The notes: generated by a model from the sequence alone, not told the origin. 31,970 nt of DNA from Bdellovibrionia bacterium (GCA_045805065.1 JBJMMA010000145.1:1-31970), one strand, 5' to 3'; shown: positions 7,166 through 31,970, numbered from the stretch's first letter. Made by a program: numbers and translations.

Positions 7166-7389
7166 ATGTAAATTCTAACTTTAGTATCGGTTTGTTTCTA
7201 AATTTATTCATCCTATCCTCATAACTCACCGCAGCATATAAACCCTTTCGTCAGCACAAAATCCCGGGGAACACGGGCCGCACCCGAAATCACTAGGGTT
7301 TTGTGTTGGCAGACTTTAAACGAACAACGCTTGATCAATTTACTTAGGTATTATAAATAACTCCCGCGGCCCAGAACAAAGGAACTGTT

Positions 7390-8472: not shown

Positions 8473-8486
8473 ATAGACCGATCAAG

Positions 8487-8514
8487 AAGAACCGCTTTCA
8501 AAGGCGGTTCTTTT
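8487..8514 (+). terminator. Rho-independent terminator
   Basis: AAGAACCGC-tttcaaag-GCGGTTCTT then TT, 14 nt after the stop codon. Confidence 0.75.
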
Positions 8515-8532
8515 CGCCTAATGAGGTGTTCC

Positions 8533-10642: not shown

Positions 10643-10770
10643 TGGACCGCCGTTGTACGCAAATCGGCCACCTCAAACAAGTCTTTTCAAGACGTCCCGC
10701 GTTTAACGCAGATGCACTACCAAAAGGTGGCGGATACCTTTCAAATGTGCGAAAAGAGCCTCCACAGCCT

Positions 10771-11874: not shown

Positions 11875-13463
11875 ACCAGGCACTCGGGCTCGATGTCCTG
11901 CAAAAACTCATCGAGGCCGGCGTCACGGAATTTTGCGTATGCCCAGGCGCGCGCAATAGTCCGCTCATTGATCTGCTTCTCAAACTTCCAGCCATCACGC
12001 GCCTTCATTTCTTTGAAGAGCGCTCGGCCGCTTTCTTTGCATTAGGAAGAATCAAAGCAACGGATCGCCCGGTTGCAGTCATCACGACCTCGGGCACGGC
12101 TGCTGGAGAGCTTCTCCCTGCCACGATGGAAGCCTACTACTCCGCGCTCCCACTCGTTCTTTTGACGGCAGATCGTCCCCGCCGTTTTCGCGGAAGTGGC
12201 GCTCCTCAGACCGCTGAGCAAGTCGGGATCTTTGGAATCTACGCTGAGAAGTGCATCGACACGGCTTCAGGCGAAAGCTTTACACTCTCGGATTGGTCGC
12301 ACACAAAGCCCCTTCATCTGAACGTTTGTTTTGAGGAGCCGCTCATTGATACTTCCGCGCAAAAAGCGGTGGATGAGTTTGCGGCTCAGCTCTCCTCGGG
12401 AGCCTATTCTCAGATTTCAAAGGGTACTACCGCTGAGGATATCCGAAGCTCTGAACTTGAAGCATTTTTAGAGAAGACTCGTAAGCCTTTGGTTTTGGTC
12501 GGTGCTCTTCATCGCGAAGATCGCGCTGAGGTTCGTCGGTTTCTCTCTGATTTTTGTGCACCTACCTATTTCGAGGCACACTCAGGGTTGCGTGAAGATA
12601 AAGCCCTCACTCGCGTTCGGGTACATGGCGTCGACGGCATCCTCGAGCGCGCTCGCAAGAACGGCTACGAGATTGATGGCGTTCTCCGGATCGGCGGCGT
12701 CCCTACCCTGAGACTCTGGCGCGATCTTGAGAGTTTGAACGGCAAAATCCCGGTCTGCTCCGTGAGCCGCGAGCCATTTTCGGGCTTGAGCTGGGCTAAG
12801 ATCACGGCAGCGACTCCCTCGCGCGTTCTTCGCGGCGTAACTCCACAGGCTCCGATGGGCGCGAGCGACTTTCTGGCCTCGGATCACGCTTTCCAGGAAA
12901 AGCTTCGCGCGCTCTTTCACCAGGAACCACTTTCTGAGCCAGGTCTTTTCCATGCCCTTTCCCGCGCCATTCCTGCAGGCGCTCGCATCTTTATCGGAAA
13001 CAGTCTTCCGATCCGCGAGTGGGATCTTGCAGCCACTTATGCCTCGCGTGAGTTTGAAGTCTCGGCAAGTCGCGGCCTGAACGGGATCGATGGCCAGGTT
13101 TCGACTTTCTACGGCTTCAGTGAGGCTGGAAAAGAGAACTGGGCGATCATTGGTGATCTCACTGCCCTTTATGATCTTCCAGGCCCCTGGGCGCTCTCTC
13201 AGATTTCTGAAGAGATCAAAACGTCTCTTGTCGTTGTGAACAATGGCGGCGGGAAAATCTTCTCTCGTATGTTTGGTCCGAAAGAGTTTCAAAATCCGCA
13301 CAACCTGGATTTTGCGGCCTGGGCCAAGCTCTGGAAACTTCCCTACGAGCAATGGCAATCGATTCCGGATTCGGGAATCGAAACCCGCTCGCACCGAATC
13401 ATTGAGCTCACACCAGACGATGCTGCCACCCAGCGTTTCTGGAAAGCTTACGCCGCATTATGA
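11871..13463 (+). CDS. menD: SEPHCHC synthase
   Basis: CPGARNSPL, EERSAAFFALG, TTSGTA, TADRP, GNSLPIR, RGLNGIDG, GDL...NNGGGKIF; ATGA coupling with menF. Confidence 0.96.
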   Translation: MNQALGLDVLQKLIEAGVTEFCVCPGARNSPLIDLLLKLPAITRLHFFEERSAAFFALGRIKATDRPVAVITTSGTAAGELLPATMEAYYSALPLVLLTADRPRRFRGSGAPQTAEQVGIFGIYAEKCIDTASGESFTLSDWSHTKPLHLNVCFEEPLIDTSAQKAVDEFAAQLSSGAYSQISKGTTAEDIRSSELEAFLEKTRKPLVLVGALHREDRAEVRRFLSDFCAPTYFEAHSGLREDKALTRVRVHGVDGILERARKNGYEIDGVLRIGGVPTLRLWRDLESLNGKIPVCSVSREPFSGLSWAKITAATPSRVLRGVTPQAPMGASDFLASDHAFQEKLRALFHQEPLSEPGLFHALSRAIPAGARIFIGNSLPIREWDLAATYASREFEVSASRGLNGIDGQVSTFYGFSEAGKENWAIIGDLTALYDLPGPWALSQISEEIKTSLVVVNNGGGKIFSRMFGPKEFQNPHNLDFAAWAKLWKLPYEQWQSIPDSGIETRSHRIIELTPDDAATQRFWKAYAAL

Positions 13464-14185
13464 CCTCTAAAGTCTATTGCCTTCATGGCTTTCTAGGACT
13501 TCCCTCGGACTGGGATTTTTTAGGGAATCCACCGGAGACAGCCCTGGAGAAGGTCGATATCTTCAGACTTCTCTCTCCATCGACCGGCGCTAATATGTCG
13601 GACTGGGCAGAAGCATTGAACGATCAAGTCGCCCAAAGGTCTGAAAAGCGGGTTCTCTTGGGTTATTCCATGGGCGGAAGGCTTGCCCTTCATAGCCTGG
13701 TCAGAAACCCCTCGCCTTGGGCAGGGGCTGTGATTGTTTCAGCAAACCCATCCCCTCTGCCGGAAGAGCGCGAGCCGCGCCTGGTCGCAGATGAAGCTTG
13801 GGCTCAACGATTTGAGAATGAACCCTGGGACAACGTCGTCTTAGCCTGGGAAAATCATCCCGTCTTTGGCGGAAAGCCTATTCCCTTCGTTCGCCGAGAA
13901 GAAGATTTCCGCAGGAAGGATCTCGCTGGAGCGTTTCGCGCCTGGTCTTTGGCTCGGCAGGAGAATCTCACGCCCAGGCTCTCCGGCTTAGAGGTTCCCG
14001 TTCTTTGGATCACGGGCGAGCAAGATTCCCGCTATCATGAAATCGCCAAACGGGTCCGCGCTCAATTACCAGAAGCCCCGATTGAATTCGTGTCGGTTCC
14101 AGAGTCCGGTCACCGCGTTCCGTGGGAGCAACCGGAGATTTTTCAAACTCATTTTTCGAGTTTTTTGCAGCGCATTTTTTGTTAA
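13460..14185 (+). CDS. menH: SHCHC synthase (alpha/beta hydrolase)
   Basis: LHGFLG, GYSMGGRLA, R...D..WA.RF, GEQD, GHRVP; coupled to menD. Confidence 0.9.
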   Translation: MTSKVYCLHGFLGLPSDWDFLGNPPETALEKVDIFRLLSPSTGANMSDWAEALNDQVAQRSEKRVLLGYSMGGRLALHSLVRNPSPWAGAVIVSANPSPLPEEREPRLVADEAWAQRFENEPWDNVVLAWENHPVFGGKPIPFVRREEDFRRKDLAGAFRAWSLARQENLTPRLSGLEVPVLWITGEQDSRYHEIAKRVRAQLPEAPIEFVSVPESGHRVPWEQPEIFQTHFSSFLQRIFC

Positions 14186-14243
14186 GACTCCGGTCACTAT
14201 GACTTCTCATACCCAGACTGGGGCCCAAACTGGAGTTCTGACC

Positions 14244-15149
14244 ATGACCGCACCACGCGCATCCTTCACGTCTCGGCTCAAGACCTGGCTCATGGCCGCC
14301 CGTCCTAAGACGTTGACGGCAGCAATCGCCCCCATTCTTGTGGGTACCACTCTTTCTCATGCTGCGTTTTATCCATCGCGCTGGGATCTTGCGATCTTTG
14401 CTCTTTTAAGTTCGCTCTTCATTCAAATCGGAACCAACCTGATCAATGACTCCATTGATTTCAAAAAAGGCACGGACACCGAAGAGCGCATCGGCCCAAA
14501 GCGTGTCACTCAAAGCGGACTTCTGAGTCCACAAACCGTGATGCTGGGTGGCTTCATCTGCTTTGCGATCTCCGCCCTTCTTGCTGTTCCGCTTCTTCTT
14601 CAGGGCGGATGGGTCATTGTTGGAATTGGCGCGCTCTCCCTCCTTTGTGGTTACGCTTATACGGGCGGTCCTTTTCCTCTGGCTTATGTGGGCTTGGGCG
14701 ATCTCTTTGTTCTTCTTTTCTTCGGTCTGGCCGCGGTCGGCGGAGTGTACTACCTCAACACCGGCACTTTTGATCTCAAGCCAGTTGTTGCGGGCGTTCA
14801 GATCGGGCTTCTTGCGATGGTGATGATCGCAATCAATAATCTTCGCGATGCTGAAGGCGATAAAAAGACCGGCAAGAAAACACTCGCAGTGCGTTTTGGA
14901 AAAGCTTTCAGCCGAGCTGAAATCACTTTCCTTTGTCTTGCTCCTTTTGCGATGGGCATCTACTGGTTCAATCTTGGACTCACCGCAGCTGCCGTTGCTC
15001 CACTCCTGGTGCTTCCTTTGGCGATTCGTGTGGTTTCCAAAATCCAAAACACGGAACCATCTCCTGCGTATAACGCTTTTTTGGGAATGAGCGCGCTTTT
15101 GCACCTTCTCTTTGGCATCCTTCTCAGTGCGGGATTTAACCTGACGTGA
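14244..15149 (+). CDS. menA: 1,4-dihydroxy-2-naphthoate polyprenyltransferase
   Basis: AARPKTL, QIGTNLIND..DFKKGTD, AYTGGPFPLAY.GLGD, NNLRD...D...GKKTLAVRFG. Start 14244 has GGAG (alternative 14199). Confidence 0.95.
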   Translation: MTAPRASFTSRLKTWLMAARPKTLTAAIAPILVGTTLSHAAFYPSRWDLAIFALLSSLFIQIGTNLINDSIDFKKGTDTEERIGPKRVTQSGLLSPQTVMLGGFICFAISALLAVPLLLQGGWVIVGIGALSLLCGYAYTGGPFPLAYVGLGDLFVLLFFGLAAVGGVYYLNTGTFDLKPVVAGVQIGLLAMVMIAINNLRDAEGDKKTGKKTLAVRFGKAFSRAEITFLCLAPFAMGIYWFNLGLTAAAVAPLLVLPLAIRVVSKIQNTEPSPAYNAFLGMSALLHLLFGILLSAGFNLT

Positions 15150-16132
15150 GGATCTTTTACTCGCCTTACGAGCTCAAGCCGCGTACGAGCCTGAGCAGTC
15201 AGGCGAGTGCGGACGCACGTCCGGGCGCGCTCTTGAAAATCGAGCACGATGATCTGGGTACAGGTTACGCAGATCTTTTCCCATGGCCCGAGCTTGGTGA
15301 TCAACCACTGGCCGATCAACTGGCGATGCTTCAAAGCGGGCTCTTCACCTCTTTGAGCCGAAATTCATTTGTTTTTACGCGCGCGGATGCGCGCGCCAGA
15401 GCCGAAAAGAAAAGCCTATGGGAAGGTTTAGCCATTCCCAAAAACCATAAACTGATCACAGATGCCGCAAGCCTACTCACAGGCGACTTGCTCGATAAAA
15501 TCCTTTCTGAAGAATTTGAAAGAATAAAACTCAAACTGGGTCGCGAGCCAAAATCAGATGCTGACCACGTGAACAAAATAGCCAAAAAACTGAACGGCAA
15601 AGCAAAACTCAGACTGGACTTCAACTCATCACTCACAAAATCAAACTGGCAAACCTTCTGTGAAACCCTATCCGCAGAAGCCGTAAACGCCATCGACTTC
15701 ATTGAAGACCCGATCGAATGGGATGCAAAAGAAGGCTTTGGCCCATCCCCTCGTCAACTCAAACTGGCAGTCGATCGTTCAAGCGACACCGTCATTGACT
15801 CTACGACTTGCCCGGATGTCATCATCATCAAGCCAGCAGTTTCTGACGTCGCATCATCGCTGGTGAAAGCCAAGAACTGGCATAAGAGAATCGTGTTTAC
15901 GAGCTATCTGGATCATCCGGTGGGTCAGCTCTGGGCCGCATGGTCGGCAGCAACTGCTGCGAAAGAAACCGCTGTCGACATCTGCGGTCTTCTTTCTCAG
16001 GATGCGTACGAGCCAAATTCATTTCAGTCCCTGATCATGACAGAAGGCCCAAAGCTTGTGCCACCGCACGGCACTGGAATTGGATGGGACGCGGAGCTTG
16101 AGTCACTTTGCGAGTGGAAGGAACTTCCATGA
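15146..16132 (+). CDS. menC: o-succinylbenzoate synthase
   Basis: GYADLFPWPELGD, KLKLG, LRLDFN, FIEDP, AVD, IIKP enolase-superfamily motifs; GTGA coupling with menA. Confidence 0.88.
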   Translation: MRIFYSPYELKPRTSLSSQASADARPGALLKIEHDDLGTGYADLFPWPELGDQPLADQLAMLQSGLFTSLSRNSFVFTRADARARAEKKSLWEGLAIPKNHKLITDAASLLTGDLLDKILSEEFERIKLKLGREPKSDADHVNKIAKKLNGKAKLRLDFNSSLTKSNWQTFCETLSAEAVNAIDFIEDPIEWDAKEGFGPSPRQLKLAVDRSSDTVIDSTTCPDVIIIKPAVSDVASSLVKAKNWHKRIVFTSYLDHPVGQLWAAWSAATAAKETAVDICGLLSQDAYEPNSFQSLIMTEGPKLVPPHGTGIGWDAELESLCEWKELP

Positions 16133-17334
16133 GCGAGCAACGCTTTGACCCGTTGGATTGGAAAAGCGCCGCCACGCATGTGCTCTTTAACCCACGCATG
16201 CCAGCTGCCGATGCTCAAGAAATCGAGCAGCGATTAAAGTCCCTCAAACCCCTCGAGTCGCATCTTTGGATCGCAACATCAGGCTCCACGGCGCAAGTTG
16301 CCGGTCAATTGAAATGGGTCGCGCTTTCCAAAGCAGCGATTCTTGCCTCAGCTCAAGCGGTTAATCAGCATCTTACCTCAACATCAAGAGACGTTTGGGT
16401 CACAGTGCTTCCAACTTTCCATGTAGGTGGAATTGGGATCTATGCTCGCGCTTACCTGAGTGAAGCAAAAGTCGTGAGCGGACTTCTTACGGACACATCC
16501 GGAAACACGAAATGGGATGCCAGGCACTTTCATCGAGCTTGTGTTGAAAATGACGCCACACTGAGTGCGCTCGTTCCGACTCAAGTTTACGATTTGGTTC
16601 AAGCGAAACTTGAAGCTCCTAAAACCATGAGAGCGGTCGTCATTGGTGGCGCAGCTCTTTCTGAGTCTCTTTACCTGGAAGCGCTTCAACTCGGCTGGCC
16701 TCTTCTTCCAAGCTACGGAATGACAGAATGCTGCTCGCAGATCGCTACAGCTTCACTCGCCTCGCTCAAAGCTTGTCCTGCTCGTTTTCCAGAGTTCGAG
16801 CTTCTCTCTCATGTGAAAGCAGGTCAGAGCGCCAAAGGTAAAATCAGAATCAAATCCCCGTCCCTGCTCACCGGTCTTGCTATTCTCTCACAAGATGGAG
16901 ACCGCTGGATGGACCCTAAGGTGGATGGATGGTTTCAGTCTGAAGACATGGGTGAAATCATCACGGCTGCCCAGGGTCGCTTCTTGACGGTTCGCGGCCG
17001 AAGCTCTGACTTTGTCAAGATCGGTGGCGAGAGCGTTGATCTCAATCGACTCTCTGCGGTCCTGACCCAAGTGAGAACACAAGCAGCCTCGTCGATCGAC
17101 TTGATCATCCTGCCCATGGAAGATGAAAGACTGGGAAGTGTGATTCACGGTGTTACGGCCGCATCTGAAGAAAGCCCAGCGGGATCCGAAGCCAGAAGGA
17201 TCTTTGATCAGTTCAACTCACGCGTCCTTCCCTACGAGCGAATCAGAAAGATTCACTTTGTCCCAAGCATTCCTCGCTCTCCTCTACAGAAGCTTCTGAA
17301 GTCCGAACTGCTTTCGCTACTTTCTCGGAAATGA
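16129..17334 (+). CDS. menE: o-succinylbenzoate-CoA ligase
   Basis: ATSGST, LPTFHVGG, ALVPTQ, SYGMTECCSQ, EDMG, GR...VKIGGE, IPRSPLQK; ATGA coupling with menC. Confidence 0.9.
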   Translation: MSEQRFDPLDWKSAATHVLFNPRMPAADAQEIEQRLKSLKPLESHLWIATSGSTAQVAGQLKWVALSKAAILASAQAVNQHLTSTSRDVWVTVLPTFHVGGIGIYARAYLSEAKVVSGLLTDTSGNTKWDARHFHRACVENDATLSALVPTQVYDLVQAKLEAPKTMRAVVIGGAALSESLYLEALQLGWPLLPSYGMTECCSQIATASLASLKACPARFPEFELLSHVKAGQSAKGKIRIKSPSLLTGLAILSQDGDRWMDPKVDGWFQSEDMGEIITAAQGRFLTVRGRSSDFVKIGGESVDLNRLSAVLTQVRTQAASSIDLIILPMEDERLGSVIHGVTAASEESPAGSEARRIFDQFNSRVLPYERIRKIHFVPSIPRSPLQKLLKSELLSLLSRK

Positions 17335-20226: not shown

Positions 20227-20838
20227 TTATTCTGCGATCTCACAAGACGTTGCGCCCGTCTCCGGAGTGCAGCCATCCCAGAAGGTTTTGCTGCACCGAG
20301 CGTTTTGTGGAGTGACCCACTGACCGGAACGAATGCAGTCCTGCCAGTATTCGCTCTTCACATCGCTCATCTGAGCGCGAACATCGGTCACAAAGCTTTG
20401 TGCGATTTTTTCGATCTTGGCTGGATCTTCGTTCAAAGCCTTGGCCACTTTCTGAAGTGATTCACGAGATGGCATTTGAAGCTGAACCAAAGCCATCAGA
20501 TCAGATCTTTCGATCCCAAGCTTTGTAATCTGCTCTTCATTGGCATTGTGTGCAATGTCCAGAATCGTTTGCGCGGATTCAACACGGATTCCAAAATCAC
20601 GAGCCAACTCTTCGGCCGAATCCATGCTCAAAGTGTCCAGATGATGGCTTCCATGGTGGCCTCCATGATAGCTTCCATGGCTTCCGTGCTGCCAACCCCC
20701 GTGATGCCAATCCCAATCAGAGCCATGACCATGGCCATGCCCTACTCCTACCGTAACGTTACAAGATTGAAACATCGTCACTGCAACAAACAACACGCCT
20801 AATACGCGAATGGCTTTCATAGTCAGAGTCCTTTTCAT
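20227..20838 (-). CDS. Lipoprotein with His/Gly-rich segment and C-terminal 4-Cys motif
   Basis: Lipobox-like FQSC; GHGHGHGSDWDWHHGGWQHGSHGSYHGGHHGSHH; C-terminal C..W.TP.N..C....W.GC.P.TGA..C. Confidence 0.8.
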   Translation of the reverse strand: MKRTLTMKAIRVLGVLFVAVTMFQSCNVTVGVGHGHGHGSDWDWHHGGWQHGSHGSYHGGHHGSHHLDTLSMDSAEELARDFGIRVESAQTILDIAHNANEEQITKLGIERSDLMALVQLQMPSRESLQKVAKALNEDPAKIEKIAQSFVTDVRAQMSDVKSEYWQDCIRSGQWVTPQNARCSKTFWDGCTPETGATSCEIAE

Positions 20839-20982: not shown

Positions 20983-21810
20983 ATGAAATCCATCAGTATT
21001 TTGAAGCACAAGCGAAGATGGATGGCACCCGTCATCACTCTTATGAGCCTCTGCAGCTGTGCTCCACAAGAACCAGGCTCTCACCTCGTTGCGCAGTCTC
21101 GATCCATTATTGGCGGCAACCTGGTCACAGAAGACTCGGAGATCGCCTCCTCCGCCGTGGTGATCAACATCGATCATGGCAAAAGCATGTGCTCGGGAAC
21201 CCTGATCGGGGATCATCTCGTACTCACGGCTGCGCACTGCGTGCTCGAAGCAGAAAGCCTCCATCTGTATTTTGGAAACGTTCTCGTCGACCTGAAAGGG
21301 GCAACTCCTTTTCAGAACTATCGCGCAGAGGCTTCAGTGGAAAAGGTCGTGGTTCATGAGAACTATTCGATCCAACACTATCGGGGTTTGAACGACATTG
21401 CTCTGATCACATTCAAGCAATCACTTCCACAAGGACTGAAGCCTGCCGCTCTGGCACCCTCTTCCCTGTCTCATGATAACGCCTTGCTCTCAAAAACGGC
21501 TCTCGTCGCGGGCTTCGGACTGACAAAGGACACAAGAAAACCCACGGGCTCTCAGAATCTGAGTCAGGTCGAGCTCAAGATCAATCTCTTTGAGAAGAAC
21601 TCGATTGTCGAGCTCATCAAGCCTGAATTTAAAACTCAAGCCGTCTGCTCTGGCGACTCGGGCGGTCCCGCTTACCTGAGTATCGATGGAAAGCTCTACC
21701 TTTGGGGCGTGAATAGCCGGGGCGATTGTGAAAAGTACAGCTACATTACACTCGCAAGTGACTTTCAAGACTGGATCTCAGAGAAGTCCCGGGAGCTTGA
21801 GATCAAGTAG
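20983..21810 (+). CDS. S1 (trypsin/chymotrypsin-fold) serine protease, probable lipoprotein
   Basis: IIGG, LTAAHC, NDIAL, GDSGGP catalytic triad motifs; LCSC lipobox; GAGG before ATG 20983. Confidence 0.92.
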   Translation: MKSISILKHKRRWMAPVITLMSLCSCAPQEPGSHLVAQSRSIIGGNLVTEDSEIASSAVVINIDHGKSMCSGTLIGDHLVLTAAHCVLEAESLHLYFGNVLVDLKGATPFQNYRAEASVEKVVVHENYSIQHYRGLNDIALITFKQSLPQGLKPAALAPSSLSHDNALLSKTALVAGFGLTKDTRKPTGSQNLSQVELKINLFEKNSIVELIKPEFKTQAVCSGDSGGPAYLSIDGKLYLWGVNSRGDCEKYSYITLASDFQDWISEKSRELEIK

Positions 21811-21843
21811 AAGGGTCTGAACCGACATTGTCTCAGACCCTTC
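21810..21843. terminator. Hairpin between convergent genes (possible bidirectional terminator)
   Basis: GAAGGGTCTGA-12 nt-TCAGACCCTTC, perfect 11-bp stem; no strong U tract. Confidence 0.55.
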
Positions 21844-21875: not shown

Positions 21876-22274
21876 TCAATAACCCGTGCTGCCGCTAGAG
21901 CTGCCGCCGTAGCTTACGCCTGCGCTACCGTAAGAGGTACCTGCGCTGGAGGATGCCGTTCCAGCCTTCTGGCCTGCAGCAACGCCTGCTTTTTGGCCAG
22001 CTTTCTGACCTGCAGCCTGACCGGCCTTCTGGCCAGCCTTCTGGCCTGCGGCGACTCCGGCCTTCTGACCAGCGGCAACGCCTGCTTTTTGGCCAGCCTT
22101 CTGACCTGCAACGCCAGCCTTCTGACCCGCTTTTTGACCGGCCTTCTGGCCTGCGTAGCTTACGCCTGCTGCTGAAGTTCCAGCGCTACCCGTGGTTCCG
22201 TAAGTCTGAGCAAAACCGATCGAAGAAAGAGCGAAAACAGCAATTCCAGCCATCAATGAAAGTGAACGTTTCAT
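21876..22274 (-). CDS. Secreted low-complexity AGQK-repeat protein
   Basis: AGGAG RBS, signal peptide ending GFA, 67-aa core of AGQK/AGVA units with synonymous codon variation among repeats. Confidence 0.85.
   Translation of the reverse strand: MKRSLSLMAGIAVFALSSIGFAQTYGTTGSAGTSAAGVSYAGQKAGQKAGQKAGVAGQKAGQKAGVAAGQKAGVAAGQKAGQKAGQAAGQKAGQKAGVAAGQKAGTASSSAGTSYGSAGVSYGGSSSGSTGY
21954..22154 (-). repeat. Coding tandem repeat, about 12-bp units: 11x AGQK, 3x AGVA, AGV, AGQA, AGTA
   Basis: Counted from the translation; DNA units such as GCCTTCTGGCCA/GCCTTCTGACCT on the plus strand. Confidence 0.9.
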
Positions 22275-22326
22275 AGTATCAATCTCCTAAAGAATGAATT
22301 GTTTTGGTTCGGATGAGCGACCTTTC

Positions 22327-22342
22327 TGCAGTCGAAATGCCA
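22327..22342 (-). promoter_or_regulatory. sigma54 -24/-12 promoter of the AGQK gene
   Basis: Minus strand TGGCATTTCGACTGCA (GG-N10-GC), 52 nt upstream of the ATG. Confidence 0.65.
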
Positions 22343-22518
22343 TTCTTCCCCGCTTCCCAATGAGACGCGGAGTGAAGGAGTTCCCAGTCATCAGCCGAAT
22401 CGCCACACTGATCGTTCCGTTCGCAGATGATGATTTTTTTATTCAGAGCTGAGTCGACAGATCTTCTCACTCTAAGTGGCGGTGCACGCGACTCGATCGC
22501 TGACTGCAATCTGCAGGA

Positions 22519-23748
22519 CTACATCCAAAACCGCAGCATCGCGAAAATGTCAGTTTGCGTGGCGAGCACATTCGTGTCGACAATCTCAGGTCGAGCCACA
22601 TAAGCATATTCATAACGGACATTGAGGATGAGATTGCTGTTCAGGTAAGCCTCGACTCCAAAACCATGACGAAGAAACTGGTTGGATTCGGATCCTGTAT
22701 CGAGGTTGATGTAGTCAAGCTTGTAAAATGGCGTCCACACATGAGTCAGATTGTATTTGAAGAGTGCGTAATAGCCCCTGCTTTGCTTATATGCGATAGA
22801 TCGGATATACGGATCAGTGCTTCCTCCGGGAGTGAAAAACGTCGCCAGTCCCGGATTGATCTGTCCATTGTTCAGTGTGGGGTTGTTCCAATTCAGAGCC
22901 TCGACCGCCTCAAGGCTGAGGTTTGCGCTGATCTTGTTTTGCGTCAGACGATCAAATGAAAGTACGCCGTATTCGGATATCGCGAAGGGCTGAGGAAACT
23001 TCGTGGTCTTCTGAAAGTTTCCGCTGATGCCAAGAAGGAAAGGGAGCTGACGGGGATTCCAACGCGTATTGAGAACGGCCCCCAGTGTAAGATCCGCAGC
23101 GGTGAAATTGCCACCTGTCTGAAAATCATTCACCAGAGCAAAATCCCCATGCCAGTCCGGATTAAAGTTCCACGATATCGCTCCGCCAACATCATAGTTA
23201 TTGAACATTGAATTGGTCTGAAGCCGGGTATAGGTCCGGTGCTCGTCGGTCAAAAGACCAAAGGGGACATAAAACCTTCCCACCATAAAATATGTCGGAA
23301 TGGCCGCTCCTTCTGTCGCGAGCTGAAATCTCAGATACGCCTCTCTCACCTGACTTCCGGCAAGAGGAGACATATTATAGGTCAGCACGCCCCGCATCTC
23401 GGAGCCGCCCTCGCCCTGGATGATGGACACATTTCCTGTGACAGCGGCCTCCATCAAAGCCAGACCGTTCGGCCTCTGCGTCGTCTTGGTCGTCGGCAGA
23501 TAGTCGATGAAACGCACGTCGGCATAATAAAGATCAAGCGAGGAGGTTTTGGCGGGATTAAACCCATGGGAGCCATACACCTTTCCGAACACGTTTCTCG
23601 GCCCACCCCCCCAAGGATTGGCATGGCACGCGACGCAATTCGCTTTTTCCTTAGTGGCGTACTCGGGTCTTGCATCACTGCTGCTTGAACAAACCAGGTT
23701 TAAAACCGCCGCAGCAAAAGTGAGCCCCAATCGATATTTAAAACGCAT
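22519..23748 (-). CDS. Monoheme cytochrome c - outer-membrane beta-barrel fusion (Cyc2-like architecture)
   Basis: Signal peptide from ATG 23748; ARPEYATKEKANCVACH...FGKVYGSHGF right after the predicted cleavage site; EAYLRF, VGRFYVPFGL, amphipathic strands, aromatic C-terminal strand IFAMLRFWM. Confidence 0.8.
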   Translation of the reverse strand: MRFKYRLGLTFAAAVLNLVCSSSSDARPEYATKEKANCVACHANPWGGGPRNVFGKVYGSHGFNPAKTSSLDLYYADVRFIDYLPTTKTTQRPNGLALMEAAVTGNVSIIQGEGGSEMRGVLTYNMSPLAGSQVREAYLRFQLATEGAAIPTYFMVGRFYVPFGLLTDEHRTYTRLQTNSMFNNYDVGGAISWNFNPDWHGDFALVNDFQTGGNFTAADLTLGAVLNTRWNPRQLPFLLGISGNFQKTTKFPQPFAISEYGVLSFDRLTQNKISANLSLEAVEALNWNNPTLNNGQINPGLATFFTPGGSTDPYIRSIAYKQSRGYYALFKYNLTHVWTPFYKLDYINLDTGSESNQFLRHGFGVEAYLNSNLILNVRYEYAYVARPEIVDTNVLATQTDIFAMLRFWM

Positions 23749-23775
23749 CGCCCAACCCCCAGTGCGGGCGGCGTA

Positions 23776-23791
23776 TGCGAGCGATGTGCCA
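23776..23791 (-). promoter_or_regulatory. sigma54 -24/-12 promoter of the cytochrome-porin gene
   Basis: Minus strand TGGCACATCGCTCGCA (GG-N10-GC), 27 nt upstream of ATG 23748. Confidence 0.65.
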
Positions 23792-23812
23792 CAAGGCACT
23801 GGGTCAGCGGTT

Positions 23813-23828
23813 CGGGGCGCCTTTTGCA
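23813..23828 (+). promoter_or_regulatory. Candidate sigma54 promoter of the cupredoxin gene
   Basis: CGGGGCGCCTTTTGCA (GG-N10-GC, perfect TTGCA, degenerate -24), 48 nt upstream of the ATG. Confidence 0.45.
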
Positions 23829-23876
23829 AAAAGTTTTAGAATACATTCCAAAAAATTTCTTAAGTCGAGGTGATTC

Positions 23877-24278
23877 ATGACTCAGTCGATATTCATTCTT
23901 CTCATTGCAGCGTTCCTATCGCTTCCTCAGGGTGCCCAAAGTAAGACTACAAAAAAACAAGCGACTCCCAAGCAATCACCCGGAGTGGCAAGCACGGCCA
24001 GCGCACCCGTTACTCTCACGATTCCAAAGGACTCCATGTCAAAAGGTGCCACGGCTTATGGAGAGAACCCGAAAGTCGTGAAAGCGGGAACTCAAGTCAC
24101 CTGGAAAAACGAAGACACAGTGGCCCACACCGTGACTTCGGACTCTGGCGCTTTTGACTCGGGCAATATCCTGCCCGGACAAAGCTGGTCCTATACGTTC
24201 AATCAGCCTGGTAAGTTTCCGTATTATTGCACCCTACACGGCAAGCAAATGATGGCAGGATCGATCGAGGTGCAATAA
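23877..24278 (+). CDS. Cupredoxin (plastocyanin/amicyanin-like blue copper protein), exported
   Basis: GAGGTG RBS, signal peptide, GTQVTWKNED..AHTVTS, YYCTLHGKQMMAG giving His/Cys/His/Met type-1 ligands. Confidence 0.92.
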   Translation: MTQSIFILLIAAFLSLPQGAQSKTTKKQATPKQSPGVASTASAPVTLTIPKDSMSKGATAYGENPKVVKAGTQVTWKNEDTVAHTVTSDSGAFDSGNILPGQSWSYTFNQPGKFPYYCTLHGKQMMAGSIEVQ

Positions 24279-24281
24279 GCC

Positions 24282-25136
24282 ATGATCATTTCCAAGCAAA
24301 AGCTGACCTCTGAAGATGTTGCGCGCCACTATGATGATCTGGATGCGATCTATCGTGAGACCTGGGGACAGCATCTGCATCATGGGCTTTGGGAGACGGA
24401 AGCGGATTCGACGCATGAGGCGGTGAAAAACCTCTCAATGTTTGTGATCCAACGACTGCGGGTTCATGATGGCGCACGCGTTTGCGACATCGGATGCGGA
24501 TATGCGGCGACCTCTCGACTGATCGCGGAAAGATTCTCAGCTGATGTCACGGGAATCACGATCTCAAAAGCCCAGCTTGCGCACGCCAAGCTTCGAAGAC
24601 CTGCACGCGGCCGCGTCCAACTGCATCAGATGAATTGGCTTGAAAACACCTTGAGCGATCAGAGCTTTGATCATGCCTTTGCAATCGAGAGCTCCGAGCA
24701 TATGGAAGATCACCGAAAATTCTTCTCCGAGGCCTACCGTGTTCTCAAGCCAGGGGGCCGTTTTGTTGTCTGTGCTTGGCTCTCACGCGATAACCCTGGC
24801 TCCATCGAGGAGTCTCTGCTGCTTGAACCGATCTGCAGACACGGCCGACTCCTGGGTCTTGGCTCTGAGAACGAATACAGGCAAATGCTCAAAGAATGCG
24901 GCTTTCATCTGGAGACCTTTGAAGACCTTAGCTCCCAGGTGAGCAGAACCTGGTCGATATGCTCCACGCGTTTCATCCGTTCACTGCCAACGGACTCATC
25001 CAAGTTCCGACTCTTGTTTCAGAAAGAAAATCCTCAAATCGGATTCTTTCTTTCGCTCTTCCGCATCCAACTCGCCTATCGGCTTGGATCGATGAGATAT
25101 GGAGTCTTTACCGCGCTCAAGCCGCTTTCGGCTTAG
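24282..25136 (+). CDS. Class I SAM-dependent methyltransferase (tocopherol/sterol MT-like)
   Basis: VARHYDDL, WGQHLHHGLW, VCDIGCGY, IESSEHM, RVLKPGG; 3 nt after the cupredoxin stop. Confidence 0.88.
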   Translation: MIISKQKLTSEDVARHYDDLDAIYRETWGQHLHHGLWETEADSTHEAVKNLSMFVIQRLRVHDGARVCDIGCGYAATSRLIAERFSADVTGITISKAQLAHAKLRRPARGRVQLHQMNWLENTLSDQSFDHAFAIESSEHMEDHRKFFSEAYRVLKPGGRFVVCAWLSRDNPGSIEESLLLEPICRHGRLLGLGSENEYRQMLKECGFHLETFEDLSSQVSRTWSICSTRFIRSLPTDSSKFRLLFQKENPQIGFFLSLFRIQLAYRLGSMRYGVFTALKPLSA

Positions 25137-27594
25137 TCTTATAAACCGCGGCCGCGACGGCAAGCCCTGTACAAAGGAGAGGCAGCTTGAAAGATCGAAG
25201 TGCGTCGGTCAATCGCTGAATCTTTGTTGCCTTCAGGCTTAACTCGGGAGGCTGCTCCAGAATCATTAAAAAACCTTTCCGTTTAAGCACTCTCCAATGA
25301 GAGCGTCCTTTGCGGTCTCGCCAAAACCGCAAGCTCACACTGGCCTTCCCCACTTTCAGATCATGGATCTCGGCCCAAGGAAGCCAATCCGGCAAAATGG
25401 GTTTGATCAGCAGCGTTTTGAGAGGCGCAACAGGACGAATGCCAAACAGGATCTGAAGATAAAGGGAGATTGCTGAGACGGACCACGATTGCAGGAGATT
25501 GGCTTGAGGATAAAGCCCCGGAACAGGATACTCCTCGCTTCGTTCATGTCCGCTGATCACTTCAGGAAGGCGCATGCTCGGAAAAAGTGTCGCTAAAGCA
25601 AATTGGGAACCCAGAAGATCCATCGTCTCACGGACAAAGCCACAGACCGCAAGTCCTCCTGCGATTGTGGAATTTTCAACCGGCCAGACCGAGCCGCGAT
25701 GATAGGAGAATGGATCAAACGCAGGATTATCTGAAGATAGCGTTCGAATCCCCCAACCCGAAAACATCTCCGGTGAAAAAAGTCTGTGCACGACCGACTC
25801 AAGCTTATCCTGATCGATGATGCCCGAGCCCAGGCACTGGGCCGCGTTTGAGGCAATGGCATCTATTTGTTTGCCTTGTCCATCCAGCGCAAGAGCAAAG
25901 AAGTTTTTTCCAGGCATCCAGAAGGCCTGATTAAACCTTTTCTTGAGACTGGACGCCTCTCTGAAATACTGCCTGGCCTCGCGAACTCTTCCAAGAGCGA
26001 GCGCGATTTCCCCGGCAGAAATGAAAGCGAGATAGCAATATCCCTGGATCTCGGCTGCAGCATGCGGCGGAACGCGATTGCGGCCTTGAGCGTCCACGAT
26101 CGCATCATCGGAATCTTTCCACGCCTGATTGGGATTGCAGCCTGGAACGCCTGGAAGAGCGGGAGCATAATAGATAAATCCATTCCCTTCTCGAATTCTG
26201 CGTCTCATCCAGCGAACACAGGCTTCAAAGGTTTTTGCGTGCCGTTCAAGAAGTCCGTGATCCCCCGTCCAATTGTAAGCCGCTGCAAGCGTCACGATCC
26301 AAAATGGCGTGGATGCGACATCTCCGTAGTAGACCTCGCGATTGGACTCACCGAGCGCTGCCAATGGATTGAGTCTCCGCTCATGAAGAATCCGATCGGG
26401 CTCCTCATCTCTCCACGGATTACTCTGAACGCCGCGAAGATTTCCAGTCAGGGCAAGTGCGGGCTCAAGAAAGCGCGGAGAAAAGAGCGCCGCCTGCCAC
26501 GCGGTCGTCAGAGTATCTCGACCAAACACTCCAATGTAGCGCGGGACGCCTGCGCTGAAGGTCGATGCCTGAGCGGGCCCATGATTCAAATCTGGCGAAA
26601 GCTTAAGAAGCTCCAGATCCACCTGAGCTTGTGCGATGATTTGATTGAGGGTCGAGTTACCGGTTCGGATCGTGGTATCTGCCCGGGGATGATCTGATTT
26701 ATCTCTGGGAAGCGGGGCAATCCTATTTGACCCGGGCGATTGATCCACGGCTTTATCACCATTCACCGTAGGCTGAAAGCGGACTGAAAGCTCAACCCAT
26801 GCTCTCGCAGCAAGGACCGTCGAGAGCTTCAGGGTCGAGAGCTTTCCCGGAACTAAATCCACATGGGCTTCGCATCCTTCAGGGTTATCGAGACCGAGTG
26901 TAATGTGGACTCCCCTTTTGATCTCATCGCCATTTTTGGGTGAGTGATTTCCGAGGAGTGCTGCAAGTTCCTCTGTCGGCGCGTTCTTTCTGAATCCGAA
27001 ACTGCGCTCAAAAGTCAGCGCGGGCAATCCGTCTTCCCATCTGACATCGGGCAGAAGCCCTGCTTCGAAGTTTGAGACTCCATGACGACTCTCGTTTTCC
27101 ACTTTCATTTCTTCTTCAAATTCGACATCCCAGACTGGACACGCAAGCTCGAGTTCAAGATTGACATGGCGGGGCGTGGAACTATGGCTTCTCACGCGGA
27201 TGGTCTCAAGCCACTCGTTGTTCAAATGCCGTCGGATACTGACTTCCACTGAGCCTTCCGCCACCTCCAGATCCGATAGCGTGCCCTGAGTCAGGGTGTC
27301 AGGAACCAGGAAAACGCCGCACCATTCATTCGCGGATCCCTGAATCGAGAATGTTCGCGACAGTGTTTTTCCATTTGCTCGCAGGCGATACTGAGTCACG
27401 ATCCGAGCACCGGCAAAAAAGAATCCCTGAAGTGGCCGTCCCGTCAATTGCCCAAGCGGATCGGTCGACAGCCGGGCCCATCCCTTAAATAATGTCAGTA
27501 TATCAGGATCGGTATTTCCCTGGCCGCACGTTCCGTGAAGCGCAGAAACCAGCGGCATCTTTGCCGCATTTTTTGCCATCTTGCTCGCCGCCAT
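25117..27594 (-). CDS. Glycogen-debranching enzyme / amylo-alpha-1,6-glucosidase family (start uncertain, 27558-27594)
   Basis: AGVPRY..FGRD, RDEEP.RILHE.R, YYG..STP, NQAWKDS.D, EIQGY, FSGWGIRTLS, YHRGSVWP, RLPE, YPQA...QSWS. Confidence 0.9.
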   Translation of the reverse strand: MAASKMAKNAAKMPLVSALHGTCGQGNTDPDILTLFKGWARLSTDPLGQLTGRPLQGFFFAGARIVTQYRLRANGKTLSRTFSIQGSANEWCGVFLVPDTLTQGTLSDLEVAEGSVEVSIRRHLNNEWLETIRVRSHSSTPRHVNLELELACPVWDVEFEEEMKVENESRHGVSNFEAGLLPDVRWEDGLPALTFERSFGFRKNAPTEELAALLGNHSPKNGDEIKRGVHITLGLDNPEGCEAHVDLVPGKLSTLKLSTVLAARAWVELSVRFQPTVNGDKAVDQSPGSNRIAPLPRDKSDHPRADTTIRTGNSTLNQIIAQAQVDLELLKLSPDLNHGPAQASTFSAGVPRYIGVFGRDTLTTAWQAALFSPRFLEPALALTGNLRGVQSNPWRDEEPDRILHERRLNPLAALGESNREVYYGDVASTPFWIVTLAAAYNWTGDHGLLERHAKTFEACVRWMRRRIREGNGFIYYAPALPGVPGCNPNQAWKDSDDAIVDAQGRNRVPPHAAAEIQGYCYLAFISAGEIALALGRVREARQYFREASSLKKRFNQAFWMPGKNFFALALDGQGKQIDAIASNAAQCLGSGIIDQDKLESVVHRLFSPEMFSGWGIRTLSSDNPAFDPFSYHRGSVWPVENSTIAGGLAVCGFVRETMDLLGSQFALATLFPSMRLPEVISGHERSEEYPVPGLYPQANLLQSWSVSAISLYLQILFGIRPVAPLKTLLIKPILPDWLPWAEIHDLKVGKASVSLRFWRDRKGRSHWRVLKRKGFLMILEQPPELSLKATKIQRLTDALRSFKLPLLCTGLAVAAAVYKTKPKAA

Positions 27595-27643
27595 TTGGGG
27601 CCTGGAGTTGCAACTTCGAATCCGAAAATCAGGGAGAAATAAA

Positions 27644-28039
27644 ATGGATCAGTTGCGCAGCACCAGGCAGGCATTCAGGATTCTCCAATTTGCCGTCGTG
27701 ATGTTCACTCTCCTCGCCGGCATCGATAAGTATGCCCACGTTCTGACAAACTGGGAGCAATACATGTCTCCCCTTTTCATGGGAATTCTAGGTGCCAAGG
27801 GCACGCACACTTTCTTTTTAGTGGACGGCGCCATTGAAATCCTGGTTGCCATCGGCGTAGCCCTTCGCCCGCGCATTTTCGCCTATATTGTGTCGGCCTG
27901 GCTCATGGGGATCGTGATCAATTTGCTCACGACTGGACATTTCTACGATGTCGCGCTTCGAGATTTTGCGTTGAGCTTGTCCGCATTTGCTTTAGGAAGA
28001 TTGGCGGGGACCTTTTCTAGCAGAACGCCCGCTGCGTGA
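27644..28039 (+). CDS. DoxX-like small membrane protein
   Basis: GGGAG RBS; AGIDK...TNWEQY, G.IEI..G, YIVSAWLMGIVINL, FYDVALRD; four hydrophobic helices. Confidence 0.8.
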   Translation: MDQLRSTRQAFRILQFAVVMFTLLAGIDKYAHVLTNWEQYMSPLFMGILGAKGTHTFFLVDGAIEILVAIGVALRPRIFAYIVSAWLMGIVINLLTTGHFYDVALRDFALSLSAFALGRLAGTFSSRTPAA

Positions 28040-28877
28040 GTCCTGAAAAGTCAGCGAGATAGCATATTGTCTTCTCAAGGACCCGCTCGCCCAAGAGTCT
28101 GATCATCGCCCCCACACCTTTCAGCGTCAAAGACTTCGTCCGAAGCATTTTCTGGGCCCCGTCCAAGGTTTCTTTGGAAGCCTTTTGAATACTGCCGGAG
28201 TCAAAAGGTGGCTGTGGATCGTACTCGATCAGCAACTGCGAGACTTTGGCGTCTTGCTCGGAGGAAAAGCGGGCCGCAAGGCTCAGTGCCATATCGATTC
28301 CTGCCGAAACTCCAGCCGCGGTGATCACTTTGCCATCCGTCACGACTCTCTGATCAGTGACCGGGATCGCGCCAAAATCAGACAAAACAGAAGTCACTGC
28401 CCAGTGAGAAGTTGCATTCTTCCCTTCTAGAATTCCTGCCTTTGCCAATATCAGGGAACCACTGCAGACCGAAGTCGTGTATTGGGTCGTTTTGTCGATG
28501 CGTTTCACCCAATCGATGATTTCCGGATCAGCCATCGCAATGAAGGTCGAGTTGGCGGATCCTGGGATGATCAGAATGTCAGCTTCTTTTACATCCGAAA
28601 AGCCATAAGGCGCGACCAGTGACAGGGCTTTGCTGTCTGTCTCAACTCTGCCCGCTCTCTTTGCCACAAACAGGATTTTGGTATTGGGAATGAACTGCAG
28701 AACTTCATAGGGGCCAATCGCATCGAGAGTGGTCATTCCGTCATAGAGCAGAATGGCTATTTTCGTGGTCTTTTTCGCTGTGTCCGTATTTGCCTCGGCC
28801 AAGGCAGATCCGGCTGAAAGGATGAACGCGATAGTGAGAATGATTCCGTAATAAAACTTCTTCAAAAATCCGATCAT
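28017..28877 (-). CDS. DJ-1/PfpI family protein (isonitrile hydratase-like) with signal peptide
   Basis: AAGGAG RBS; LDAIGPYEVL, SVCSGS, ATSHW, TAAGVSAGIDMAL, EYDPQPPFDSG. Confidence 0.9.
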   Translation of the reverse strand: MIGFLKKFYYGIILTIAFILSAGSALAEANTDTAKKTTKIAILLYDGMTTLDAIGPYEVLQFIPNTKILFVAKRAGRVETDSKALSLVAPYGFSDVKEADILIIPGSANSTFIAMADPEIIDWVKRIDKTTQYTTSVCSGSLILAKAGILEGKNATSHWAVTSVLSDFGAIPVTDQRVVTDGKVITAAGVSAGIDMALSLAARFSSEQDAKVSQLLIEYDPQPPFDSGSIQKASKETLDGAQKMLRTKSLTLKGVGAMIRLLGERVLEKTICYLADFSGLTQRAFC

Positions 28878-31094: not shown

Positions 31095-31970
31095 ATGTGG
31101 CAAGTTCGAATTGAAGATCCATCGGGCGAGACCCGAATCTGTTCGCTAAAGAAACCCACCCTTCGCGTAGGACGCGATCCAAGTTGCGAGATCCAGCTTC
31201 GGGATCCCCTGGTCCCATCCGAAGCCGCGCTCATTTGGGAGACGCCCCGTGCCTCTTCTTCCAAAAATGCGTCCCGCACGGCCTCACCCTACTGGGTGCG
31301 AACGCTTGATTCTGAGCAACCCCTGCTGCTTGGAGACTTGCCGTTTCGCGAGTCGCAGCTTCCACACGGGATGATTCTCACGGTCGGTGAAAGCCGGATC
31401 GTGCTTCAACGAGCGGATGAGCATCTGGCGCTTCCCGATCAGCCTCACAGCATCCGCCCCTGGCTCACCTGCTCCGAGTCGGGTCGAAAGCTTCTTTGGA
31501 CAGCCAAAAAAGCTGCGGGCACGCCCCTCTCGCTCTACCTTGCGGGCGAGACCGGCACCGGAAAAGAAGTCCTCGCGCAGCTTCTTCATGCCTGGAGCGA
31601 TCGCGCGCGAGGCCCTTTCATCCCGCTTCATTGCGGAGCGCTTCCTTTGTCACTGGCTGAAAGTGAGCTCTTTGGACACGTCAAAGGCGCGTTCACGGGC
31701 GCAATCCAGCAACGCCCCGGAGCCTTGATGCAGGCTCATGGTGGAACGCTTTTTCTGGACGAAGTCGGCGATCTCCCCCTCGATATTCAGGTCAAGCTTC
31801 TGCGCTTTCTGGAGAATGGAGAAATCAGACCGGTCGGGGCCGACCAATCCACGCGTGTGGATGTGCGCCTGATCTGCGCGACCCACCATCCCCTCAGGCA
31901 GCTTGTGGAAGAAGGAAAGTTTCGCCGCGATCTTTACTTCCGGATCGCATCCGTGACACTTGAGATCCCT
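31095..31970 (+). CDS. sigma54-dependent transcriptional activator with N-terminal FHA-like domain (runs off right edge; not in ORF track)
   Basis: Manual translation from ATG 31095 (AGGAG RBS): LRVGRDPSCEIQLRD, GETGTGKE, ESELFGHVKGAFTGA, GGTLFLDEVG, QVKLLRFLE, FRRDLYFR. Confidence 0.95.
   Translation, partial: MWQVRIEDPSGETRICSLKKPTLRVGRDPSCEIQLRDPLVPSEAALIWETPRASSSKNASRTASPYWVRTLDSEQPLLLGDLPFRESQLPHGMILTVGESRIVLQRADEHLALPDQPHSIRPWLTCSESGRKLLWTAKKAAGTPLSLYLAGETGTGKEVLAQLLHAWSDRARGPFIPLHCGALPLSLAESELFGHVKGAFTGAIQQRPGALMQAHGGTLFLDEVGDLPLDIQVKLLRFLENGEIRPVGADQSTRVDVRLICATHHPLRQLVEEGKFRRDLYFRIASVTLEIP

Follow-up and report, generated by a model that had tools for sequence, protein, structure and literature searches.

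At positions 21,876 to 25,136 of a 31,970-nucleotide (nt) stretch of DNA from a Bdellovibrionia bacterium (GCA_045805065.1 JBJMMA010000145.1:1-31970; the whole stretch is hereafter the window), four genes lie side by side, coding for a secreted protein built of AGQK repeats, a porin with a CxxCH motif, a cupredoxin and a methyltransferase. We argue that the working unit consists of two of these genes, not four. The porin and the cupredoxin form a pair that recurs in related genomes, and on balance we lean towards reading them as a sigma-54-controlled outer-membrane electron conduit, in which the haem-porin would pass electrons from a donor outside the cell to the cupredoxin. The four genes and their predicted promoters are as follows (aa, amino acids; ORF, open reading frame; SAM, S-adenosylmethionine):

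21876-22274, minus strand: secreted AGQK-repeat protein, 132 aa (ORF)
22519-23748, minus strand: CxxCH porin, 409 aa counted from the ATG (ORF; homologue alignment)
23877-24278, plus strand: cupredoxin, 133 aa (ORF; Pfam PF00127)
24282-25136, plus strand: class I SAM methyltransferase, CMAS-like, 284 aa (ORF; Pfam PF02353)
22327-22342, minus strand: predicted sigma-54-type promoter of the AGQK gene, TGGCATttcgaCTGCA (2 mismatches; consensus scan)
23776-23791, minus strand: predicted sigma-54-type promoter of the porin gene, TGGCACatcgcTCGCA (1 mismatch to TGGCAC-N5-TTGCA; consensus scan)
23813-23828, plus strand: candidate sigma-54-type promoter serving the cupredoxin and methyltransferase genes, cGGggcgccttTTGCA (3 mismatches; -24 box weak)

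A preliminary description of this DNA had placed the four genes at these positions, with the methyltransferase beginning 3 nt after the cupredoxin stop codon, and on both counts our ORF calls agree. A longer porin ORF, starting at a TTG and extending to 23829, was rejected, as the homologue alignment gives it no support. In a Pfam scan the cupredoxin matches PF00127 with 35.6 bits (cut-off 21.2) and the methyltransferase matches PF02353 at 1.2e-23, and neither the AGQK protein nor the porin matches any family. An NCBIfam scan yielded no specific name, the methyltransferase falling under every cut-off.

Read from its N-terminus, the porin comprises a signal peptide, a mature N-terminus RPEY, a CVACH haem site (C38/C41/H42) and a 16-strand barrel, together with a conserved PFGLLTDEHRTYTR loop. 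The signal peptide was read from a hydrophobic N-terminus ending SDA|RPEY, the resulting Ala-Arg-Pro-Glu-Tyr junction being conserved in the alignment, and the short N-terminal haem domain spans approximately residues 27-72. An AlphaFold2 model built on the homologue alignment (pLDDT 84.2, pTM 0.82) has 16 strands, preceded by a short N-terminal part that is helical. Its Foldseek matches - PorB, Omp32, OprP 2o4v, OprO 4rjw, OmpF and 5o78 - are all 16-strand porins, with a Foldseek probability of 1.00 to 2o4v, 4rjw, 5o78, PorB and OmpF. The Atlas model of the porin lies nearest to clusters named 'Cytochrome c domain-containing protein' and to Porin_O_P/BBP2 porin clusters, and a sequence search of the PDB gave matches at chance level only.

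A word-based search recovered 92 porin homologues, every named one of which is a 'hypothetical protein' from an Oligoflexia or Bdellovibrionota assembly, the closest (P0002-P0006) being 77-87% identical to the window porin. Across this search and the species-genome loci discussed below, the sequences found are confined to Bdellovibrionota. All 26 aligned porins have C38, C41 and H42 in common, and R27, P28, Y30, M99, D168, E169 and H170 are likewise invariant; the last three sit within the PFGLLTDEHRTYTR loop and are strictly conserved. Among stored sequences of at least 300 aa that have the site in their first 140 residues with 16 residues before it, the CxxCH is present in 163 of 163, and the family signature can be written (F)-A-R-P-E-[YF]-A-x-[RK]-x3-[SN]-C-x-x-C-H-x-x-P-x-G-G-G. 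The CxxCH would be expected to attach a c-type haem. More speculatively, the alignment offers M99 or H170, both invariant, as a possible sixth ligand of the haem, and the acidic DEH loop as a possible binding site for Fe(II).

A profile search reached 1398 proteins at E <=0.001, 142 of them at <=1e-30. Among the matches listed, the most distant full-length one bearing a CxxCH, P0224, leads into a Bacteroidota/Ignavibacteria family of 461 'hypothetical proteins' that is not named Cyc2, the fused cytochrome-porin of iron oxidisers to which we return below. The porin family also includes a branch wholly lacking the CxxCH domain (P0205, P0208, P0210 and P0213, from genomes G062, G147, G158 and G178), for which the matches begin at profile position 70. 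A second fused cytochrome-porin family, of 358-435 aa and with the signature A-[FY]-P-E-[MF]-[VI]-[RK]-[HN]-[GD]-Y-x-N-C-x-x-C-H-x-x-P-x-G-G-G, occurs in relatives (loci L005-L011, in genomes G001, G003, G004, G017, G018 and G033).

The cupredoxin has a signal peptide and the ligands H84, C118, H121 and M125, a His, Cys, His, Met pattern that we take to be a type-1 copper site, and hence reads as a blue copper protein of type 1 located in the periplasm. Nine porin-linked cupredoxins were aligned, and H84 and C118 do not vary among them. How often such a carrier accompanies the porin was assessed across 47 porin loci, 29 from species genomes and 18 from metagenomes (one of the latter, L045, is the same contig as L015). 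When 13 window proteins were compared with the 29 genome loci by tblastn, a cupredoxin was found to adjoin the porin in L014 and L015, and phmmer, run on the full ORF set of the 47 loci, turned up further cupredoxins in L046 and L050 (and L045). For the Pfam scan of neighbours, 131 ORFs from the genome loci (three upstream and two downstream of each porin) and 56 ORFs from 17 metagenome loci were used, with L044, a near copy of L043, contributing two ORFs only.

In 38 of 46 loci (36 of 43 after identical porins are dropped), Pfam recognises a periplasmic electron carrier among the ORFs closest to the porin, taking three on its upstream side and two or three on its downstream side. The genome loci account for 23 out of 29 (cytochrome c in 20, cupredoxin in three, and in L018 a high-potential iron-sulphur protein, HiPIP, as well; none in six) and the metagenome loci for 15 out of 17 (cupredoxin in six, cytochrome c only in nine; none in two). 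Porin and carrier genes are variously divergent, co-directional with the carrier on either side, or convergent. That the pair is kept through such changes of gene order argues for a shared function rather than for one inherited operon. The neighbourhood comparison proposed in the preliminary description, once made, therefore points to a functional link between haem-porin and cupredoxin, a pairing that recurs in rearranged form in relatives.

The porin phylogeny indicates where cupredoxin takes the place of cytochrome c. The tree has 38 rows: duplicates (L044, L045, L051 and L057) were taken out, broken or site-less sequences (L036, L041 and L042) were omitted, and L050, L058 and L060, in which the porin runs off the contig, were never entered. 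The window porin falls in a six-row clade with 98/98 support, in which a cupredoxin lies beside the porin in all six rows, compared with two of the 32 rows outside it (L047 and L023). Two types of cupredoxin are involved, plastocyanin/amicyanin-like in the window, L014, L015, L046 and L050, and azurin-like in L043/L044, L047 and L049. Some of these loci have features of their own. In L050 the cupredoxin domain linked to the porin forms the C-terminal end of a 332-aa ORF (2038-3036, minus strand) whose start resembles that of a lipoprotein, and in L014 a copper-type P-type ATPase with YHS and HMBD domains (6445-8745, minus strand) lies two genes from the pair. The cupredoxins of L015 (11198-11707, plus strand) and L046 (2500-3009, plus strand) carry Gly/Ser/Asp-rich C-terminal extensions ending in PTGY and GSGY respectively; these resemble the GSTGY tail of the AGQK protein, and a common C-terminal tag is possible.

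Turning to the promoters, the sigma-54 consensus used here is TGGCAC-N5-TTGCA, with GG at -24 and GC at -12. The preliminary description rested on a bare GG-N10-GC motif upstream of each of three transcription units. The motif is indeed there, with its GC 53 nt from the ATG of the AGQK gene, 28 nt from that of the porin and 49 nt from that of the cupredoxin. Such bare motifs are not above chance: the genome contains 37,841 of them, and even with the consensus at two mismatches or fewer the window has six matches against 9.95 expected from shuffles. What is informative is the fit to the extended consensus combined with position. Across the genome, sites just upstream of a co-oriented ORF make up 4 of 5 (80%) with no mismatch, 21 of 36 (58%) with one, 144 of 432 (33%) with two and 307 of 2399 (13%) with three, set against a background of ~7% for sites with four or more mismatches. 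Taking the chance of a site being real from its excess over the background share, we judge the porin site TGGCACatcgcTCGCA very probably genuine and the AGQK site TGGCATttcgaCTGCA probably so; for the cupredoxin site cGGggcgccttTTGCA the estimate falls a little short of even, and goes up once a similar box in a relative is counted. Sigma-54-type promoters are thus credible for porin and AGQK genes, where the extended fit is good, and plausible for the cupredoxin, where it is weak.

Comparable boxes stand upstream of porin orthologues of 44-47% identity: gGGCACgccgcTCGCA in L015, cGGCATagcgcTCGCA in L046 and cGGCACggctaGTGCA in L043, and the porin promoters of the window, L015 and L046 share GGCA[CT]-N3-GCTCGCA. 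Before the cupredoxin of L050 is the box cGGtacaccttTTGCt, with the same divergent layout and -12 region as in the window, and before that of L049 is TGGAACatgacCTGCA. A site with at most two mismatches within 200 nt of the porin start was found at only 4 of 42 loci (2 distinct), and in many loci the porin gene lies downstream of a cytochrome gene in the same direction. In the window, the porin and cupredoxin boxes are back to back, 21 nt apart. Prediction of sigma-70-like promoters gave none in the three spacers, and a repeat search gave no convincing inverted repeat common to the regions upstream of the AGQK gene and of the porin/cupredoxin pair. Two other features were noted here: a perfect palindrome, TTTTGCAAAA, at 23822-23831, which contains the -12 region of the candidate cupredoxin promoter, and a sigma-54 activator with an FHA-like N-terminus at the window end (31095-31970, plus strand), ~6-7 kb from the porin-cupredoxin pair.

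Could the four genes be unrelated neighbours that share only their use of sigma-54? The genome encodes rpoN and ~17 strong sigma-54 activators and has well over 100 sigma-54-like sites upstream of ORFs above background, and with sigma-54 being so common a shared promoter class says little about co-regulation. The adjacency of porin and carrier in 38 of the 46 loci across several gene orders, together with the well-supported cupredoxin-partnered clade, tells against this explanation, and for the four genes as a set we consider it very unlikely. The preliminary description had offered unrelated members of one sigma-54 regulon as its alternative; the idea suits the AGQK gene.

What, then, is the AGQK gene? 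That it is genuine is clear: its product has a signal peptide, its ORF is preceded by a Shine-Dalgarno sequence, and its 11 AGQK units, followed by the tail GSTGY, are written in 8 different 12-nt words, so that selection acts on the protein. It belongs to a family of five paralogues dispersed over contigs of this genome, each with an upstream sigma-54-type box:

contig C16, 1571-2356, plus strand: AGQK paralogue, box with 0 mismatches, His-rich N-terminus
contig C25, 572-1003, plus strand: AGQK paralogue, box with 3 mismatches
contig C106, 32723-33364, plus strand: AGQK paralogue, box with 0 mismatches
contig C145 (the window), 21876-22274, minus strand: AGQK paralogue, box with 2 mismatches
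contig C253, 3952-4398, minus strand: AGQK paralogue, box with 1 mismatch, His-rich N-terminus

Three of the five end in GSTGY, and against these five genes the genome has a single porin. The four paralogues outside the window adjoin genes for GH15, three HAD hydrolases, DJ-1/PfpI, PilZ and PilT-like proteins, and no redox protein. HAD hydrolases, glycoside hydrolases (in the window, GDE/MGH1-like) and DJ-1/PfpI (window 28017-28877) recur among the neighbours of the family, which may point to a stress or compatible-solute context. Outside this genome, AGQK-like DNA is present in six of eight same-family genomes searched (G001 and G003-G007). A search of 5.8 billion protein sequences gave just three weak look-alikes, an Atlas search gave no function (scores <=0.80, chance level by the tool's own figures), and the repeat string was not found in the literature searched. 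In its small size, its secretion, its abundance of Gly, Ala, Lys and Gln and its predicted disorder, the protein is similar to the YbgS family and bacterial LEA-like hydrophilins, which are also its nearest Atlas clusters, but no sequence homology to them was found. Our best guess, from composition and neighbours, is that these are sigma-54-driven, secreted, disordered, hydrophilin-like proteins. The AGQK gene of the window is a neighbour of the porin and not its partner.

Nor does the methyltransferase hold up as a conserved partner. With only 3 nt between the two genes, it is likely to be transcribed together with the cupredoxin here. Orthologues of 41-47% identity were found in three of 60 relatives (G013, G017 and G034), none of which has a strong porin match. 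They never lie beside porin or cupredoxin genes, their neighbours being haem O/A synthesis genes, CheB/CheD and a PIN protein. Conversely G007, which has both porin and cupredoxin, lacks a methyltransferase orthologue, and at the porin loci none adjoins the porin; tblastn against the 29 genome loci gave weak family-level matches 1-6 kb off in L014 and L017 (23-29% identity). We take it for an unrelated gene, with nothing linking its function to that of the cupredoxin.

These distributions bear directly on the four-gene envelope system put forward in the preliminary description, in which the AGQK peptide would be exported or oxidatively cross-linked with the help of haem barrel and copper protein, and the methyltransferase would modify the peptide. 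The genes do adjoin, three units have sigma-54-type boxes, the secreted AGQK protein has a high content of Gln and Lys and bears Tyr at each end, and the PTGY and GSGY tails of the L015 and L046 cupredoxins are like its own. Yet no AGQK homologue was found at any of the 47 porin loci (tblastn for the first 29, phmmer on the ORFs of all 47), and neither it nor the methyltransferase co-occurs with the porin across them. Where a relative has both AGQK-like DNA and a porin, the two are 80 kb (G007) and 21 kb (G004) apart. With the remaining paralogues on other contigs and away from redox genes, nothing in loci or paralogue neighbours speaks for export or cross-linking by porin and copper protein. 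We regard a single co-regulated system of four genes as highly improbable.

The architecture of the porin, its conserved pairing with a carrier, and the promoter matches together with their conservation are observations. From these we infer haem attachment and physical electron transfer, and likewise the direction and substrate of that transfer. In the conduit that we favour, the haem would first be reduced by a donor located either extracellularly or within the lumen of the pore, Fe(II) or some other soluble reductant being the most plausible candidate; the haem would then reduce the type-1 copper site of the cupredoxin, and the cupredoxin would ferry the electron to the respiratory chain. 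The back-to-back sigma-54 promoters would drive porin and cupredoxin, with a signal-specific activator switching the pair on. Cupredoxins, HiPIP and class I-type cytochromes c are high-potential carriers. Because the partners of the porin are of these kinds, and in parallel with the step from Cyc2 to rusticyanin/Cyc1, an inward direction is preferred. That step belongs to the rus pathway of Acidithiobacillus ferrooxidans, made up of Cyc2, Cyc1, Cup, CoxBACD and rusticyanin (PMC10654088).

The same pair could work the other way, the cupredoxin feeding electrons through the haem-porin to an external acceptor such as Fe(III) (reductive iron uptake), oxidants (detoxification) or prey-derived or humic compounds, or it could serve as a redox sensor. 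The ChaN-like haem/iron-uptake proteins that lie beside the porin in L030, L039 and L059, a weak NCBIfam match of the porin to the LbtU siderophore porin (21 bits, cut-off 90) and the copper ATPase beside the L014 pair would all be in keeping with such roles. A preprint reports that Bdellovibrionia genomes have automatic calls for both oxidative and reductive extracellular-electron-transfer genes (10.1101/2022.03.26.485925), and the potential given for purified Ghiorsea Cyc2 is low, at -130 mV (PMC13692758), so haems of the Cyc2 type are not tied to one direction. Three considerations stand against an outward or other role. First, the partners are of high-potential types, which usually feed oxidases. 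Second, known outward conduits rely on multihaem cytochromes. Third, the window locus has no reductase or uptake gene. An outward or other role for the pair seems to us unlikely.

The inward conduit must itself be weighed against several findings, some of which turn on Cyc2. According to Keffer et al. 2021 (PMC8406198), a Cyc2 has a signal peptide, a single CXXCH, a 16-strand barrel and a length of at least 365 aa, with AXPXFAR[Q/K][T/Y] 5 residues before the CXXCH and PXL 4 residues after it. The window porin has the signal peptide, a single N-terminal CxxCH, an OprO/OprP-like barrel of 16 strands and 409 aa. The following points weigh against our interpretation. The motif P-x-F-A-R-[QK]-[TY] is present in 0 of 202 stored sequences of at least 300 aa, a set in which 185 carry a CxxCH within their first 140 residues. 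The PXL is absent as well, a Pro standing at +3 after the His in 145 of 163 and being followed by x-G-G-G, where in Cyc2 it stands at +5. The likeness to Cyc2 is thus one of architecture and published features, not of alignment to a verified Cyc2, and homology is not claimed. In the window the pair adjoins no oxidase, bc1 or Cyc1-type gene, as a rus-type operon would have it; its neighbours are the methyltransferase and a glycoside hydrolase, and the cupredoxin promoter match, with its three mismatches, is weak. The ChaN-like proteins mentioned above would fit iron acquisition too.

Distribution is a further consideration on the same side. The porin is patchy, with 22 of 301 sampled Bdellovibrionota genomes having it, this one counted. 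Strong matches among 40 close relatives are limited to G007 (47% identity) and G004 (36%). With this query and profile the porin was not found in the same-genus genome G001, which is 95% complete and gave just two weak N-terminal matches (~2e-4). Finally, eight of the 46 loci have no Pfam carrier, and in four of these eight (L016, L019, L037 and L057) an adjacent ORF has a hydrophobic N-terminus and one CxxCH.

A broader proposal goes beyond the window. The porins may represent a fused cytochrome-porin branch of the Bdellovibrionota's own (ARPEY...CxxCH-x2-PxGGG, with the PFGLLTDEHRTYTR loop) that is as yet undescribed, under sigma-54 control, and served by an exchangeable carrier - cytochrome c, HiPIP or either of the two cupredoxin types - to take up electrons from Fe(II) or further reductants outside the cell, the hosts being soil bacteria of a phylum known for predators. 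As a separate matter, the AGQK proteins would be a new family of sigma-54-driven, secreted hydrophilin-like proteins with a GSTGY C-terminal tag. Taken as a whole this proposal is tentative, and we would call it possible rather than probable. The literature searched on Cyc2 and cytochrome-porins does not describe the family; for the comparison of motifs, the logos in Fig. S8 of Keffer et al. and the figshare alignments could be relevant.

If the pair works in the way suggested, members of the Bdellovibrionota, chiefly known as predators, could exchange electrons with their surroundings, prior hints of which come only from automatic gene calls in metagenome surveys (10.1101/2022.03.26.485925); one paper, in addition, counts a genome of this phylum among the carriers of iron-oxidation genes. 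Cyc2 screens that require the motif, as set out in PMC8406198, would miss this porin family. For the repeat peptide, placement in a separate five-gene sigma-54 family corrects its first reading as part of an envelope system.

Within the window, the four genes are flanked by genes for a GDE/MGH1-like glycoside hydrolase, a trypsin-like protease and a secreted protein rich in His, and the following further features are present:

21810-21843, no strand: perfect 11-nt inverted repeat, GAAGGGTCTGA / TCAGACCCTTC, 12-nt loop (repeat search)
20227-20838, minus strand: secreted 203-aa protein with a His/Gly-rich stretch (GHGHGHGS...HHGGWQHGSHGSYHGGHHGSHH), no family match
27581-28039, plus strand: 152-aa multi-pass membrane protein, no Pfam family
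9923-17334: menaquinone biosynthesis operon (MenF, D, H, A, C, E, UbiE/MenG)

The inverted repeat, lying between the convergent AGQK and trypsin-like genes, is a probable two-way terminator, and the His/Gly-rich protein may bind metal. Orthologues of the 152-aa membrane protein lie directly 3' of the porin in L049 (7179-7619) and 7 kb off in L014, and are thus loosely linked to the pair. In the genome as a whole, 161 of 3955 greedy ORFs of at least 80 aa end in Ala-Ala, several-fold over the expectation from composition; KAA (37) and RAA (34) are found among such ends, and KSA (18) and RSA (12) occur as well. Within the window, KPKAA closes the glycoside hydrolase, RTPAA the 152-aa membrane protein and KPLSA the methyltransferase. 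In a single study, four DNA runs from soil contain short contigs identical to parts of the window, of which one spans the AGQK-porin spacer and another the porin-cupredoxin spacer; the runs may be from the samples of origin, and they support the assembly and nothing more. None of the runs listed for this DNA is of RNA.

How does the pair compare with known systems? The preliminary description recognised no described system of this composition, but a counterpart of the core does exist, namely the Cyc2 of iron oxidisers, paired with rusticyanin or cytochrome c. Published descriptions give Cyc2 a signal peptide, a lone CXXCH, a barrel of 16 strands with OprO/OprP as its model and a haem domain on the periplasmic side, with a low-spin haem held by two axial ligands (PMC8406198; PMC13692758), and Keffer et al. 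give OprP 2o4v and OprO 4rjw, which are among our Foldseek matches, as structural templates for Cyc2 too (PMC8406198). Like A. ferrooxidans Cyc2, Mariprofundus Cyc2PV-1, Ghiorsea Cyc2TAG1_1 and Leptospirillum Cyt572, the window porin is ~400 aa long, has a single N-terminal CxxCH, and combines an Ala-Arg at the likely signal-peptide cut with an aromatic residue after it and before the haem site. Nearby genes for periplasmic cytochromes c, cupredoxin or HiPIP are a further likeness (PMC8406198, PMC13692758, PMC10654088). The differences are as clear: the window family has [F]-A-R-P-E-[YF]-A with 10 residues from Arg to Cys where Cyc2 has PxFAR[Q/K][T/Y] with 7, has CxxCH-x2-P-x-G-G-G where Cyc2 has CxxCH-x4-PxL, and has the strictly conserved PFGLLTDEHRTYTR loop. 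The canonical Cyc2 motif occurs in none of the best 150 of the 1398 profile matches, Pfam and NCBIfam scans of the porin matched no Cyc2 model, and tblastn of plasmids gave nothing linking the porin to Cyc2. The architecture fits and the defining motif is absent, and because the published signature is lacking we do not file the porin as Cyc2.

With the rus operon the pair has in common an outer-membrane haem-porin encoded together with a periplasmic blue-copper carrier (PMC10654088). It differs in consisting of two genes only, divergent and with sigma-54-type promoters, and in that its cupredoxin is plastocyanin/amicyanin-like by NCBIfam and not a rusticyanin. In MtoAB, PioAB and MtrCAB, barrel and haem protein are separate subunits; the barrels are larger, and the cytochromes that thread through them are decahaem. 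What they share with the window porin is an outer-membrane barrel and a haem protein that carry electrons across the outer membrane (for MtoAB, PMC11429942), whereas here one haem is fused to a barrel of general-porin size. A last parallel is with soluble carriers. Cytochrome c6 and plastocyanin interchange as alternatives, and similarly the carrier beside the porin shifts from cytochrome c to cupredoxin in one clade. In the present case the shift is between lineages rather than copper-regulated within one organism, and involves two cupredoxin types. The clean exchange of cytochrome c for cupredoxin within one porin family amounts to a natural experiment on what the haem domain needs in a partner.

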